Positions 1 through 6,285 of a stretch of DNA of 10,205 nucleotides are shown in pieces. Position 1 is the first letter of the stretch, and each line of letters opens with the position of its first letter. The notes below the pieces were generated by a model. That model was not told where the DNA came from and ran no database searches. It was given only the letters and a program-made list of their open reading frames with translations. Where the stretch lies: UHGV virus genome UHGV-1552111; one strand, 5' to 3'. A program made the position numbers and the translations under genes. This stretch comes from a virus.

Positions 1-32
1 TGAACAGACCACACCCACCAGCGCATTTTACG

Positions 33-620
33 ATGCCACCTGACCCGAAGCCGTACATCAGCATTATGCCCGCTAATGACGTTGGCGAGTGGCTGAATCA
101 GCACATCCTGAGCGATGAGGGTGACCTCTACAACCATGACCACCAGCATTTGCTTGAAGCGGATCTGTGCTTTCTCTGGGCGTCTAACGCTTTCGAGAAG
201 AAAGGGCGTTCCGTGCTGGGGCAGGCGGAAGAAGTGGCAATGCGGGCTGGAGGCTGGCAGAAAGCGCGGATGGAGCAGCAGATGTATGAATGGTTCGGCA
301 GGGTGCCGCAGTTCATCATCACGCTGGCCGCTGATTACTGCTCGCAATGTTCCGATCTGGAATTCTGTGCGCTGATAGAGCACGAGCTTTATCACATCTG
401 CCAGGCGACAGATGAATTTGGCGCGCCGAAGTTCACGCAGGAAGGGCAGCCAAAGCTGAAGCTGCGCGGCCATGACGTGGAAGAGTTTGTGGGCGTGGTT
501 CGCCGTTACGGTGCAAGCCGGGACGTGCAGGAAATGATTGATGCGGCGAATCAGCCAGCGGAGGTTGCTCATCTCGATATTGCCAGAGCGTGCGGGACGT
601 GCATGCTGCGACTGGCTTAA
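33..620 (+). CDS. Putative phage metallopeptidase-like protein (HExxH motif, several CxxC pairs); may extend upstream of the window
   Basis: ORF 33..620 (195 aa). HELYH motif encoded at 381..395 (cac gag ctt tat cac). CSQC before the motif and CGTC near the C-terminus suggest zinc binding. The reading frame has no stop between position 3 and the ATG at 33, so the true start could lie outside the window. Position immediately upstream of the small terminase gene. Resemblance to SprT-like or phage putative metallopeptidase families is from memory only. Confidence 0.55.
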   Translation: MPPDPKPYISIMPANDVGEWLNQHILSDEGDLYNHDHQHLLEADLCFLWASNAFEKKGRSVLGQAEEVAMRAGGWQKARMEQQMYEWFGRVPQFIITLAADYCSQCSDLEFCALIEHELYHICQATDEFGAPKFTQEGQPKLKLRGHDVEEFVGVVRRYGASRDVQEMIDAANQPAEVAHLDIARACGTCMLRLA

Positions 621-651
621 ATACTGGACTGTATAAGACGAATGGTGATTT

Positions 652-1125
652 ATGGCTGCATTAAAACCTGATGTGAAAGCCTTCATCATTCAGTCGCTTG
701 CGTGCTATGACACGCCATCGCAGGTGGTCGAGGCTGTCCAAAAAGAATTCGGGATCAAGATTACCCGCCAGCAGGCTGAATCTCACGACCCCACGAAGGC
801 CAGCGGTAAGACGCTCGCCAAAAAGTGGATCGAGATGTTCCACGCGACGCGCGAACGGTTCCTGACCGAAACCAGCGACATTCCGATAGCGAACAAATCC
901 TATCGCCTCCGCGTGCTTGACCGCATGGCAACCAAAACCGAGGGGATGAAAAACTTCTCCCTGACGGCGCAGCTTATCGAACAGGCCGCGAAAGAGGTTG
1001 GCGACGCTTACACCAATAAGCTGAAGGTTGAGAGCACTGGCAAGGATGGCGGCCCGATCAAGACCGAGACGACCAACCTCACCGCAGATCAGGCCGCAGA
1101 GATTTACCGCAAGATGATGGGGTGA
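652..1125 (+). CDS. Terminase small subunit (DUF2280-like)
   Basis: 157-aa ORF starting [29 protein letters not shown], which I recognise as the N-terminus typical of DUF2280-type small terminase proteins. Sits directly upstream of the large terminase, whose start follows its stop within a few nt. Confidence 0.75.
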
Positions 1126-1127
1126 TC

Positions 1128-2750
1128 ATGCCTCTCCCGTTTGAATTCGATTTCAGAAACCCTGATTACCAGATGGTTTTTGAATGGCGGATGGAGCGCT
1201 TACAGCGCATTCGCCAGAACCCTGAAATGCTGCCAGCGCTAAAGCAGTTTTATCGCACCAACCCGGCACAGTTCATCATCGACTGGGGTATGACTACTGA
1301 CCCGCGTAACATCGATTATGGCCTGCCGGTCACCATCCCTTTTCTGCTGTTCCCGAAACAGGAAGAGTGGATTCACTGGATCATGGAGCGGCGCGAACGG
1401 CTGGAGAACGGCATCACCGAAAAGAGTCGCGAAATGGGGCTCAGCTGGACGGCGATCGGGCTGGCTTGCTCGCTCTGCCTGTTCAACAAAGAAATGGTTA
1501 TCGGCTTCGGCTCCCGTAAAGAGGAATACGTCGACAGCACCGGTGACCCGAAGGCGCTGTTCTGGAAGGCGCGAAAGTTCGTGGAAACGCTGCCCGTCGA
1601 GTTTCGCGGTTCGTGGGACGAGAAGAAGCACGCGCCGTACATGCGCGTTGAGTTTCCCGATACTGGCGCGGTCATCAAAGGCGAGGCTGGCGACAATATC
1701 GGTCGTGGTGACCGTACCACCCTCTACCTGGTGGATGAGGCTGCATTCCTCCAGCGTCCTCTGCTGATTGACGCGGCGCTGTCGCAAACCACCCGCTGCC
1801 GTATCGACCTGAGCTCGGTTAACGGCATGGCGAACCCGTTCGCGCAGAAGCGTCACGGCGGGAAGATACCGGTATTCACATTCCACTGGCGAAATGACCC
1901 GCGCAAGGATGAAGAGTGGTATCGCAGGGAGTGCGAGAAAATCGACAATCCGGTGGTGGTGGCGCAGGAACTTGACCTGAACTACAGCGCATCTGCGGAA
2001 GGCGTCCTGATCCCGTCCGACTGGGTACAGGCTGCCGTCGACGCTCATATTAAGCTGGGCATCCAGCCAACGGGCAAGCGACTGGGCGCGATGGACGTCG
2101 CCGACGAAGGCCGGGACAAAAATGCCTTTTCGACCCGTCACGGCTTCCTTCTGGAGAACGTGCGTGAATGGTCCGGCGTGGGCAGCGACATTTACCAGTC
2201 CGTTGAGAAAGTCTTCGGCTTTTGCGAACAGGACAACCTCGAAGAGTTTCGCTTCGACGAGGACGGCCTGGGCGCTGGCGTTCGCGGCGATGCACGCGCC
2301 ATCAACGAACTGCGTAACGCTGCGCGCCGACCGTCAATACTCGCCACACCGTTTCGTGGTAGCGGCGCGGTATTTGATCCGGACGATGAAGCGGTGCGCG
2401 GGGACAACGGACAGGCCGCACGCCTGAACAAGGACTTCTTCGCCAACGCCAAGGCCCAGAGCTGGTGGTGGCTACGCAAGCTTTTCCAGAACACCTATCG
2501 CGCCGTGGTTGAGGGCATGGCCTACAACCCGGACGAAATCATCTCAATCAGCAGCGCCATGGCGAGCAAAGACAAACTCATCATTGAGCTGTCGCAGCCG
2601 ACCTACTCCATTAACGGCGTGGGGAAAATCGTTGTTGATAAACAGCCTGATGGCACCAAGTCGCCGAACCTCGCCGACTCGGTGATGATCAGCTACGCGC
2701 CAATGAATTCAGCCCTGAACATCTGGGAGCTGCTAGGGAGACAGGCCTGA
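1128..2750 (+). CDS. Terminase large subunit (ATPase + nuclease)
   Basis: ORF track gives 1122..2750 from a GTG; I prefer the ATG at 1128, preceded by GGGG 6 nt upstream. Deviant Walker A of terminase type, KSREMGLS, encoded from 1422. Walker B-like LYLVDEAAF with the DE at 1734..1739. Size (~540 aa) and position between TerS and portal fit. Confidence 0.88.
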
Positions 2751-4216
2751 TGGCACGAAACAAGCAAGCCTCTCAGCGAACGGCACAGGCCACCGCTGAC
2801 GGCTACGAGAACTTCGTCGCCCGCGTTGGGATGCAGACGCCTAACCAGCATTCAGCATCGACCTACCGGGCGAACTCCACCAGCCGCAACCGCATGCTGG
2901 TGGAATGGTCATATCGCGGTTCGTGGGTTATCGGTGAAGCGGTCGACGCTATCCCGGACGATATGACCCGAAAGGGCATTCGCATCACTTCGGAGATTGA
3001 CGCCAAAGACCGTGGCACCCTCGAAGCGCAACTGGATGAGTTGCAGATCTGGGATGCGCTGAACGACGTGCTGAAATGGTCGCGCCTCTACGGCGGCGCG
3101 GTCGGCTTCATCATGATCGAGGGGCAAGCACCAATGACCCCGCTGCGACTCGAAACCATTGGCGAGGGCAAGTTTAAGGGCATTCTCCCGCTCGACCGCT
3201 GGATGATTAACCCGGTGCTGACACGCCGCATTAAAGAGATGGGGCCGGACCTCGGCAAGCCTGAGTTTTACGACGTGGTGACCACCGCAACGGGCATTCC
3301 GGCCTGGCGCATCCATCACAGCCGCCTGATCCGCTTTGATGGCGTCACGCTGCCATTCCAGCAGAAGATGACCGAAAACGAATGGGGAATGTCGGTTGTA
3401 GAGCGTATCTGGGATCGGCTTACTGCGTTCGATAGCGCCACTGTCGGCGCGGCGCAGCTGGTCTATAAAGCGCATCTGCGTACCTATAGCGTGGAGAAGT
3501 TGCGCGAGCTTATCGCGCTTGGAGGCCCGGCGTTCGAAGCGTTGCTGAAGAACATCGACCTGATCCGCCAGTTCCAGAGCAATGAAGGTATGACGCTCAT
3601 GGACTCGCGGGATAAGTTCGAAACCCACCAGTACAGCTTTAGTGGTCTGGATGACATTCTTTCGCAGTTTGCTGAGCAGATCAGCGGTGCCGTTGGTATC
3701 CCGCTGGTACGCCTGTTCGGTCAATCCCCGAAAGGCTTCTCTACTGGTGATGCAGACCTCGCCAACTATTACGACCGGGTGAGCTCATTGCAGGAGCGCC
3801 GCTTACGGCTGCCGATGCGCCGGATACTGGACATTATGCACCGCTCGGAACTCGGAAAGCCGCTGCCGGACGATTTCACGTTTGAGTTTAACCCGCTATG
3901 GCAAATGTCAGACGTTGACCGATCAACGGTGGCCGTAAACACCACCAACGCGATCAGTACCGCGCTGGGCGACGGATTGATGACGCGTAAGGCGGCGATG
4001 ACCGACCTGCGCGAAAACTCTGACGTCACCGGCATCGGGGCATCCATTACCGACGAGGATATCGAGAATGCCGAAGACGAAGCGCCGCCAGGCATCGGCG
4101 AACTTGGCGACAAACCGCCAGAGTCGCCAGGCGGAGATCCGATATCGAACGAGCCTACGGCAGATAGCGCGGGCGGTCGGGGATATCGTAAATGGGCGCT
4201 ACGATGGTTCAAATGA
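2750..4216 (+). CDS. Portal protein (DUF1073-like)
   Basis: 488-aa ORF directly after TerL with an ATGA stop/start overlap at 2747..2753. Size and position are typical of a portal; the N-terminal region resembles DUF1073 portal proteins as recalled. The acidic/Pro-rich C-terminal tail lies in the overlap with the next gene. Confidence 0.8.
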   Translation: MARNKQASQRTAQATADGYENFVARVGMQTPNQHSASTYRANSTSRNRMLVEWSYRGSWVIGEAVDAIPDDMTRKGIRITSEIDAKDRGTLEAQLDELQIWDALNDVLKWSRLYGGAVGFIMIEGQAPMTPLRLETIGEGKFKGILPLDRWMINPVLTRRIKEMGPDLGKPEFYDVVTTATGIPAWRIHHSRLIRFDGVTLPFQQKMTENEWGMSVVERIWDRLTAFDSATVGAAQLVYKAHLRTYSVEKLRELIALGGPAFEALLKNIDLIRQFQSNEGMTLMDSRDKFETHQYSFSGLDDILSQFAEQISGAVGIPLVRLFGQSPKGFSTGDADLANYYDRVSSLQERRLRLPMRRILDIMHRSELGKPLPDDFTFEFNPLWQMSDVDRSTVAVNTTNAISTALGDGLMTRKAAMTDLRENSDVTGIGASITDEDIENAEDEAPPGIGELGDKPPESPGGDPISNEPTADSAGGRGYRKWALRWFK

Positions 4217-4841
4217 TAGCGTTACCGAAATAATGGATGCGCTGGAGCGCTACAGCGAAATCATCACCCCCTGGGCGACGAAGGTTGCTGAGAACTTCAC
4301 CGCAGACATAGCGCGCCAGAATGAAAAGCAGTGGCGTCAGCACAGCCGGAACATCAGCGCAGAACTACGCAACATGGTCGACCGCGCCCCGGTAGGCCAG
4401 GTGATGAAATCCATCGTCGCAGAGCAAATTAAGTACATCAAATCGCTGCCTCTTGAGGCCGCCGATCGGGTGTATGACATTCAGAACAAGGCCATCGAGG
4501 CCGTTGTGACTGGTGGCCGCGCTGAGCCATTCGCGAAAGAGATAGCTGCGTCCGGTGACGTGTCACGCTCACGAGCGAACCTTATCGCCCGTACCGAGCT
4601 TGGACGCGCAACCGGCGCGCTGGATCAGGCGCGTGCGCTGTCAATCGGCTCGAATGGTTATATCTGGCGTACAGCCGAAGATGGCGACGTCCGGCATTCT
4701 CATCGGGAGATGGAGGGCAAGTTTGTCGAATGGGGACGACCTCCAACGCTTGACGGCATGACCGGTCACGCTGGCGAGCTCCCGAACTGCCGCTGTTACA
4801 AAGAAATCGTCTTCCCGACACCTCATCCCTATCTCGCCTGA
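4068..4841 (+). CDS. Head morphogenesis protein, MuF / SPP1 gp7-like
   Basis: 257-aa ORF. ATG at 4068 is preceded by GAGGAT at 4054..4059. The C-terminal half (ARTELGRATGALDQARALSIGSNGYIWRTAEDGDVRHSHREMEGKFVEWG) resembles the conserved MuF-domain core. Overlaps the portal 3' end by 149 nt in another frame; the alternative in-frame ATG at 4233 has no obvious RBS. Confidence 0.75.
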   Translation: MPKTKRRQASANLATNRQSRQAEIRYRTSLRQIARAVGDIVNGRYDGSNDSVTEIMDALERYSEIITPWATKVAENFTADIARQNEKQWRQHSRNISAELRNMVDRAPVGQVMKSIVAEQIKYIKSLPLEAADRVYDIQNKAIEAVVTGGRAEPFAKEIAASGDVSRSRANLIARTELGRATGALDQARALSIGSNGYIWRTAEDGDVRHSHREMEGKFVEWGRPPTLDGMTGHAGELPNCRCYKEIVFPTPHPYLA

Positions 4842-4855
4842 ATTGCAGGTAACCC

Positions 4856-5056
4856 ATGGAAAAAACAATCTATTTCCTGAAAGAACAGGCCAGCGAAGCT
4901 ACGCGCATCACTGCTAAATACAATGGCGTAGAGGCTATTTATCAATCTGTTGGTGATAGAGCAAAGCGCTGCCAACTTATAGGTCGTGGTAATGCGCGTC
5001 AGATAAAGCATCTGCTGCGTGAGTTTATTAAATCCACTAAGGCGGCGGATGGATGA
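4856..5056 (+). CDS. Hypothetical small basic protein (66 aa), moron-like insert in the head module
   Basis: ATG at 4856 preceded by GCAGGT at 4845..4850. Its stop overlaps the start of the next gene (ATGA at 5053..5056), suggesting translational coupling. Visibly more AT-rich than the flanking genes by eye. No family recognised. Confidence 0.5.
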   Translation: MEKTIYFLKEQASEATRITAKYNGVEAIYQSVGDRAKRCQLIGRGNARQIKHLLREFIKSTKAADG

Positions 5057-6285
5057 AATATTTCTTCTACACCCAACTGGGGGAGACTCGCTATCGCCTG
5101 GCTGACGGCTCATTGCTTTGCAAAGACGTGCCGATAGGTCGAACGGGTAAGCAGCTCTATGGTGCTGATGACCTGCCAAAACTGAAACCCGATAAGTTCG
5201 GTGAAATAGTCGTCACGCGTTCTCCTGAGCAGGTATTCCATCCGGCCACGCTCGCCTCATTCGAAGGGATGAGCATCACGATCCTGCATCCTGAAGATGA
5301 AAACGGGAATGTGCGGCTGGTGAACCCCGAGAACTGGAAAGAGCTTGCGGTCGGGCATCTTCAGAACGTGCGGCGCGGGACAGGTGATCAGTCTGATTTG
5401 ATGCTGGCTGACCTTATCGTCAAAGACGAAAGCGCCATTCAGCTTATCGAAGATGGTCTGCGCGAAGTGTCGTGCGGCTATGACGCGGAGTACGAGCAGA
5501 CCGAGCCAGGTAAAGCCGAGCAGGTCGATATTACCGGAAACCATGTGGCTCTTGTCCCTAAAGGCAGAGCCGGAAATCGTTGTGCAATTGGAGACAGAGA
5601 CACAATGGCAAATCAAAAGAAAAGCTGGTGGACCCGCATGCGCACGGCCATCAAAACGGGTGACGCTGACACCATGAACGAACTGCTGGACTCTGCGCCA
5701 GCGGCGGTAACGGGTGACGAAGGGGATCTGCCGAGCGGCGTTAACCTCAACATTAACCTTTCACCGCAGCAACCATTGCCGGACAAAAAGCCGGAAATGG
5801 GCGGAGATCCAACCGGCGACGGCGAGGACGATATCAAAACCTTGCTCAAAGCCCTGCTGGCTAAGCTGGAAGGAAATGCGACGGGCAATAACAACAATAA
5901 GCCTGGCGAAAATGATAACAAAAATCCGACCTGCGACGACGAGGACAAAGAAGAGGAAACCACGATTACCGGTGACTCTGCCTATCGTGCCGAAGTTATC
6001 GTGCCGGGTATCGATCTGAGCCGTAAGGTGAAACCGACCGCGTTCAAACGTGATGTGCTGGCTGCCGCTGACAAAACACTGGTTCGCCAGGTTGTCGGTG
6101 ATGCGGATATCCGCAAATTGCCCAAGCAATCGGTAGATATGGCGTTTAACGCCGTGTCAGAGATTGCCAAAGGGCGAAACACCCGCAGCACCACGGGCGA
6201 TGCACAACGTCCAAATATGGGCATGACCAGCATCGCTTCCCTGAACAAACAAAACGCCGACTTCTGGTCTAACCGCAAAGGATAA
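5053..6285 (+). CDS. Putative scaffold/prohead protease-like protein (DUF2213-like N-terminal domain with acidic low-complexity C-terminal region)
   Basis: 410-aa ORF with AAGGCGG RBS upstream. Position between MuF-like and capsid genes. The central region is strongly acidic and Asn/Gly/Asp-rich (GNATGNNNNKPGENDNKNPTCDDEDKEEETT), typical of scaffolding proteins. DUF2213 assignment is recalled from the N-terminal sequence and is not verified. Confidence 0.65.
   Translation: MKYFFYTQLGETRYRLADGSLLCKDVPIGRTGKQLYGADDLPKLKPDKFGEIVVTRSPEQVFHPATLASFEGMSITILHPEDENGNVRLVNPENWKELAVGHLQNVRRGTGDQSDLMLADLIVKDESAIQLIEDGLREVSCGYDAEYEQTEPGKAEQVDITGNHVALVPKGRAGNRCAIGDRDTMANQKKSWWTRMRTAIKTGDADTMNELLDSAPAAVTGDEGDLPSGVNLNINLSPQQPLPDKKPEMGGDPTGDGEDDIKTLLKALLAKLEGNATGNNNNKPGENDNKNPTCDDEDKEEETTITGDSAYRAEVIVPGIDLSRKVKPTAFKRDVLAAADKTLVRQVVGDADIRKLPKQSVDMAFNAVSEIAKGRNTRSTTGDAQRPNMGMTSIASLNKQNADFWSNRKG

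Follow-up and report, generated by a model that had tools for sequence, protein, structure and literature searches.

A predicted zincin metallopeptidase that almost always precedes the DUF2280 small terminase gene in phages of Proteobacteria

The window analysed here is the whole 10,205-nt stretch of UHGV virus genome UHGV-1552111, and it opens with a 206-aa coding sequence on the plus strand (1..620) for a PF18894 zincin-like protein. The frame 3-620 is stop-free on translation up to the TAA at 618-620, and the A of the ATG lies 1 nt 5' of the window, whose opening letters TG are the rest of the start codon. The ATG was recovered from the upstream sequence of an identical prophage in E. coli TOK-001 (locus L001), where the RefSeq protein (WP_016243560.1, named 'putative metallopeptidase') is identical to that of the window. 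A preliminary description of the window had read the frame as open to position 3 and the protein as possibly longer than 195 aa, and both points hold. In window coordinates, residue n begins at base 3(n-1). We ruled out the ATG at 33 as the start because the family-wide motif R3-P4-x-P6-P7 lies upstream of it, nor does a well-characterised protein begin there. The zincin has a mass of ~23 kDa, is acidic (pI 5.2), has seven Cys among its 206 residues, lacks a hydrophobic segment, and is soluble.

The gene adjoins a plus-strand gene encoding a 157-aa protein with a Pfam match to DUF2280 (652..1125, pI 9.1), which occupies the small terminase (TerS) position and is followed by the large terminase gene (TerL; 1122..2750, plus strand, RefSeq start 1128). 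The zincin gene thus lies directly upstream of the terminase, as the preliminary description had it. Over bases 1-1200 the window matches Citrobacter phage Omnitron and the TOK-001 prophage at 100% identity, over bases 1-4862 its identity with the latter is 98.2%, and the zincin protein is 100% identical in Citrobacter phage Omnitron and an E. coli prophage. The TOK-001 gene order is holin, lysozyme, Rz-like, Rha-family, zincin, DUF2280, large terminase, portal, and head genes. Within the 60 nt 5' of the window (L001 11940-11999), a hairpin (GAAGCCC-loop-GGGCTTC) without a T-tract separates the Rha-family gene from the start of the zincin gene, and the lysis genes are followed by a clear terminator-like hairpin (L001 11253-11273).

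Screening the protein against Pfam returned PF18894 (PhageMetallopep) with an E-value of 3.5e-43 and 147.3 bits (cut-off 23.7), covering profile positions 2-134 of 134, and PHROG 513 was matched over the full length (E=1.5e-96). These matches place the full-length zincin in a catalogued family as an ordinary member, and RefSeq has already given the gene a name. This family comprises more than 3,400 clusters in a 5.8-billion-protein collection, 903 representatives after 50% clustering, and 144 phage records. Pairwise dN/dS values between the zincin and its relatives are 0.05-0.13, which indicates strong purifying selection. Given the PF18894 and PHROG 513 matches, the more than 3,400 homologues and these dN/dS values, the 1-620 ORF is, on sequence grounds, a real gene and not a chance frame. 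NCBIfam returned no match, PADLOC defence models gave a chance-level match only, and we found no informative fusions; the N-terminal extensions of longer homologues contain no known domain. Our literature searches found no experimental or functional study of PF18894 or DUF2280.

Members of the family are commonly annotated as 'transposase', including PHROG 513 itself, ZF40 gp39, JBD44 gp16, and proteins of phiPSA1, VBM1, TRS1, and others. We rejected this identity because Pfam and NCBIfam searches found no transposase or integrase domain; the label occurs solely in deposited annotations and is probably a propagated mis-annotation.

Conservation was assessed in 129 full-length representatives, which share 34-55% identity with the query. 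The HELYH sequence at 381-395 (codons CAC GAG CTT TAT CAC), which had been taken to mark a zinc metallopeptidase, corresponds to the zincin active-site motif H128-E129-x-x-H132, and its key residues are nearly invariant in these diverse homologues (H128 100%, E129 100%, H132 99%). Downstream of it, H158-D159-V-E161 (471..482; H158 99%, D159 93%, E161 96%) probably provides the third zinc ligand and catalytic support. The family also shares the N-terminal R-P-x-P-P motif (residues 3-7, 6..20; R3 72%, P4 91%, P6 89%, P7 88%) and G171 (100%). The conserved HExxH and H158-D159-x-E161 fit a predicted catalytically competent site, in which zinc would be bound by H128, H132, and a third residue, probably H158 and otherwise D159 or E161; we chose the third ligand among these by analogy with minigluzincins and Spartan.

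The same residues bear on whether the protein acts as an enzyme at all. In a non-catalytic adaptor, the zincin fold would serve purely as a platform for binding DNA or the small terminase, with HExxH holding a structural metal; an acidic protein beside a basic partner fits such plain binding. Pseudo-enzymes, however, usually lose the general-base Glu, whereas here E129 is present in 100% of representatives and is conserved alongside both His and H158/D159/E161, which is the pattern of an active hydrolase. We therefore regard an adaptor as very unlikely and favour a catalytic protein.

The preliminary description had also proposed an extra zinc-binding element built from two Cys pairs, CSQC and CGTC. 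Both motifs are where it placed them (339-350 and 591-602, plus strand), and the element itself stands only in part. CGTC is a conserved C-terminal Cys pair (C198 99%, G199 96%, C201 87%). CSQC (C114, C117) is clade-specific, with Cys at each position in only ~20% of representatives and usually Ala, Val, or Leu elsewhere in the family, and we rejected a Cys4 zinc ribbon formed by CSQC and CGTC because CSQC is not conserved. The conserved candidate partners of CGTC are instead H48 (97%) and H50 (95%) of an H48-x-H50 motif (141..149), whose patterns co-occur with C198/C201. From this conservation and co-occurrence we infer a candidate second, structural metal site composed of H48/H50 and C198/C201.

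A structure model built from a diverse alignment of 97 sequences reached a pLDDT of 94.3 and a pTM of 0.86; an earlier model from a shallow alignment (71-86% identity) had a pLDDT of 50 and was unusable. The model has the elements of the zincin fold, namely a mixed beta-sheet, a backing helix, an active-site helix that bears HExxH (helix 118-131), and a downstream third ligand, and it predicts the protein to be a distant, self-contained zincin. The fold comparison gave values of 7.1 for projannalysin, 6.3 for selecase, 5.9 for the Spartan SprT domain, 5.8 each for proabylysin, BepA (M48), and a predicted zincin (3e11), 5.5 for YbeY, 5.3 for BlaR1, and 4.5 for Wss1. PDB sequence searches with the single protein and the family profile returned nothing useful, and no sequence-level relative has a solved structure; matches in the BFVD viral structure library were only to distant members of the same family.

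The minigluzincins (projannalysin, 4jix; selecase, 4qhf; proabylysin, 4jiu) share only 10-15% identity with the zincin, and sequence searches do not connect them. The zincin is about twice their length, with an additional RPxPP N-terminal segment, the HxH motif, C-terminal helices, and the CxxC pair, and it comes from phages, where its gene is linked to that of a terminase, whereas minigluzincins are archaeal cellular proteins. A profile search against SprT-like and other metallopeptidase families, which the preliminary description had suggested, matched PF18894, and no Pfam SprT-like or WLM match was found at E<=0.1; unlike SprT, Spartan, and Wss1, the zincin is acidic with no evident DNA-binding domain. 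Membership in SprT was rejected for want of these profile matches. Membership in ImmA/IrrE (Peptidase_M78, COG2856) was likewise rejected, as there was no Peptidase_M78 match and the constant neighbour is a DUF2280 small terminase rather than the XRE-type repressor of the ImmA/ImmR, IrrE/DdrO, and CapP/CapH type of pair. HNH endonucleases of the HK97 gp74 type are comparable in being small metal-binding accessories that sit beside terminase genes and are tied to one packaging class. They have a beta-beta-alpha-metal fold, whereas the protein described here has a zincin fold and no HNH domain or motif in Pfam, so an HNH-type terminase cofactor was also rejected.

The gene neighbourhood was compared in 84 closer loci (the TOK-001 prophage, three annotated phages, and 80 loci from a genome collection; 46-100% identical to the query) and in a more distant subfamily of 80 viral contigs. 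The DUF2280 gene lies directly 3' of the zincin gene in 84/84 closer loci, in nearly all of which the spacer is 30-33 nt. In the distant subfamily it lies downstream on the same strand in 77 of 80, within 60 nt in 62 of these; the remaining 15 have inserts of 222-1242 nt that contain homing-endonuclease-like, deformylase-like, or PAPS-reductase-like genes or small reverse ORFs. Annotated phages have the same order (ZF40 gp39-gp40, JBD44 gp16-gp17, AM106 orf22-orf23, VBM1, and Rhizobium phage RHph_TM3_3_3, the last with one reverse ORF between the two genes). The linked loci span phages of Enterobacterales, Pseudomonas, Acinetobacter, Vibrio, Burkholderia, and Rhizobium. When the zincin and DUF2280 genes in a phage collection are counted by genus, the two totals nearly coincide (Acinetobacter 62/62, Pseudomonas 44/44, Vibrio 8/8, Burkholderia 7/7, and Klebsiella 8/9), and the genes 5' of the zincin vary between phages. 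The zincin and the DUF2280 small terminase are a conserved two-gene cassette, and in phages of Proteobacteria the zincin gene is almost always immediately 5' of the small terminase gene.

The pairing has exceptions on both sides. DUF2280 occurs without a zincin in 181 Salinibacter phages, where it is preceded by an unrelated membrane protein, which we rejected as a divergent zincin. Conversely, the distant PF18894 members PHB04, L090, L092, and L093 (32-35% identity) have no DUF2280 in the ~2-4 kb downstream that were examined; in PHB04 and L123 the zincin gene is nonetheless upstream of a terminase.

The large terminase that follows the cassette is not constant. The type found in the window is present in only six of the 84 closer loci; that of JBD44 is a Terminase_3 and those of AM106 and L123 are Terminase_6, and the cassette thus precedes at least three different large-terminase families. 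A natural swap is seen in Escherichia phage vB_EcoM-606R2, whose large terminase is 96% identical to that of the window. Its small terminase is of the Terminase_2 type and lies directly after Rz, the zincin gene is absent, and only the last 39 residues are in common with the DUF2280 protein of the window (64% identity). This shared 39-aa tail with a Terminase_2 small terminase identifies the DUF2280 protein as the small terminase, and the swap indicates that the zincin accompanies the N-terminal DUF2280 domain and neither the large terminase nor the head genes. The mosaic joint lies within the small-terminase gene (window 1006-1125 plus 1122-2750 versus L089 3048-5245), and the tail appears to be exchanged jointly with the large terminase. 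In an Ewingella sp. locus (L061, 5644 onward), the DUF2280 frame continues for 695 codons, which looks like a fusion of small and large terminase, or a frameshift or assembly error.

These distributions also bear on the proposal, made in the preliminary description, that the gene is accessory cargo outside the packaging machinery. Such a gene would encode a protease against a host protein or defence system that occupies the slot between lysis and terminase genes and has no role in packaging. In the TOK-001 prophage the zincin gene follows a Rha-family gene, and accessory genes are common in this region of lambdoid phages; moreover, vB_EcoM-606R2 has a near-identical large terminase and head genes without a zincin, and the Salinibacter phages have DUF2280 without it. 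Accessory genes are, however, patchy and variable in position, whereas the zincin keeps its place beside DUF2280 in 84/84 and 77/80 loci across many genera and backbones while the upstream genes and the type of large terminase change, and it has no PADLOC defence-model match. The occurrence at the same position in relatives, which the preliminary description had recommended checking, thus runs counter to its own proposal, and we consider cargo unlikely compared with an accessory that is dedicated to the small terminase.

The 31-nt spacer between the two genes (621..651, plus strand) contains a tandem direct repeat and a Shine-Dalgarno-like GGTGA (644-648). The repeats, R1 (cTGGACtg, ~625-631) and R2 (aAGACga, ~636-642), are on the plus strand near -30 and -19 relative to the DUF2280 start, with a period of 10-11 nt. 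They exceed shuffled sequence (p<0.05) in 29 of 68 and 27 of 64 unique spacers. A third segment, R3', which we located at codons 28-31 of DUF2280 (733..742, plus strand; +82 to +91), is the reverse complement of the repeats and covaries with them across loci. For example, GTC-CAA is found with TTGGAC, GTC-AAG with CTTGAC, GTC-CTG with CAGGAC, GTA-AAG with CTTTAC, and GTG-CAA with TTGCAC. The element is weak in the window, where only GTCCA (736-740) of R3' pairs with R1, and strong in relatives (L033, L034, L063, L173, L154, and L091).

Covariation was tested on alignment A4 with a 9-pair helix and 500 shuffles. Standard pairs made up 67.9% of cells versus 59.9 ± 1.1% in the shuffles, and 73 cells were altered on both sides versus 34.9; neither observed value was reached in any of the 500 shuffles, in a test that is inflated by the relatedness of the junction sequences. 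Helix registers shifted by 1-3 columns paired just 24-44% of cells. At the wobble position of codon 30, U·G occurs 36 times versus 5 for C·A, and this tolerance of U·G over C·A hints at pairing in the mRNA. Single-sequence minimum-energy folds include the R1/R2-R3' helix. RNAalifold gave no consensus structure at the junction, the element has no match in Rfam, and no promoter or terminator signal was found there. The pattern could reflect a long-range mRNA pairing that gates translation of the small terminase; three DNA boxes for the small terminase, resembling a packaging site, would explain it as well. In addition, the minimum-energy fold of the window and of L034 pairs the ribosome-binding region GAAUGGUGAU (640-649) with UUCAUCAUUC (682-691), which corresponds to codons 11-14 of DUF2280, and this predicted pairing would sequester the Shine-Dalgarno sequence.

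The junction raises the possibility that the two genes are held together in cis. The adjacency of zincin and DUF2280 could stem from such constraints and not from a shared function, which would speak against a joint role: expression of the small terminase, or a packaging site, would need the junction sequences, and the zincin would have its substrate elsewhere, e.g., in late regulation or lysis timing. The constant 30-33-nt spacer is in line with this, as are the direct repeats before the DUF2280 start that covary with the complementary segment at +82 to +91, and the single-sequence folds that pair the two and that, in a subset of loci to which the window belongs, enclose the ribosome-binding site as well. 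However, the repeats stay with DUF2280 where a gene has been inserted (L118, L122, L124, L125, and L131), so the junction element does not depend on the zincin ORF specifically, and the linkage of zincin and DUF2280 itself persists through insertions. The lack of an RNAalifold consensus structure also weighs against a cis element, which would moreover leave the constant partner protein family unexplained. Linkage in cis alone, with a zincin substrate elsewhere, therefore seems improbable to us.

Our working interpretation, which we put forward tentatively as a serious possibility, is that the zincin serves DUF2280 small terminases as a dedicated accessory, most likely a protease that would act on its adjacent basic partner. 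It may act at the start of DNA packaging alongside the small terminase, and the charge contrast between the two proteins (pI 5.2 versus 9.1) accompanies their adjacency. Cleavage of the DUF2280 protein could serve its processing or turnover, by a protease-partner logic analogous to that of the ImmA/ImmR, IrrE/DdrO, and CapP/CapH pairs; alternatively, the target could be a protein that occupies the packaging site. We place much less confidence in any specific substrate than in the overall picture. A bolder version, which we consider doubtful, would make the zincin an obligatory catalytic third component of DUF2280 packaging initiators that processes the small terminase or clears the packaging site, and in which the junction element, through pairing of R1/R2 with codons 28-31, might gate synthesis of the small terminase by sensing upstream translation.

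The usual description of a terminase is that of a machine made of two proteins, HNH endonucleases being the only additional factor that is widespread. In the present case, a whole class of small terminases is accompanied by a zinc-protease-like protein. This class is represented in hundreds of genomes at species level and in over 140 sequenced phages, among them medically relevant phages of Pseudomonas, Acinetobacter, and Klebsiella. If the zincin is needed for packaging, it would define a new accessory step and provide a function for DUF2280 and for a family that is widely mislabelled 'transposase'; otherwise, the tight linkage would indicate an unusual cis-regulatory junction. As far as our searches show, neither the near-obligate pairing of the zincin with a small-terminase class nor the swap with Terminase_2 has been described in the literature.

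Further downstream, the window encodes a head-maturation-protease-like protein (5053-6285; PHROG 12864 and 530). The presence of this separate gene, and the position of the zincin gene upstream of the small terminase, led us to reject the zincin as a capsid maturation (prohead) protease. Between the head-morphogenesis gene and the head-protease-like gene is a stretch of ~190 nt (4863-5052) with an orphan ORF (4856-5056, 66 aa) that has no PHROG match; the prophages of E. coli TOK-001, Apirhabdus apintestini, and Pantoea stewartii, which otherwise match the window at 94-98% identity, lack this stretch. Prophages or phages assigned to four genera of Enterobacterales, namely those of A. apintestini (L005), P. 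stewartii (L006), and E. coli (L001) and Citrobacter phage Omnitron, share the packaging and head module at 96-100% nucleotide identity, a pattern that suggests either a wide range of hosts or very recent spread.
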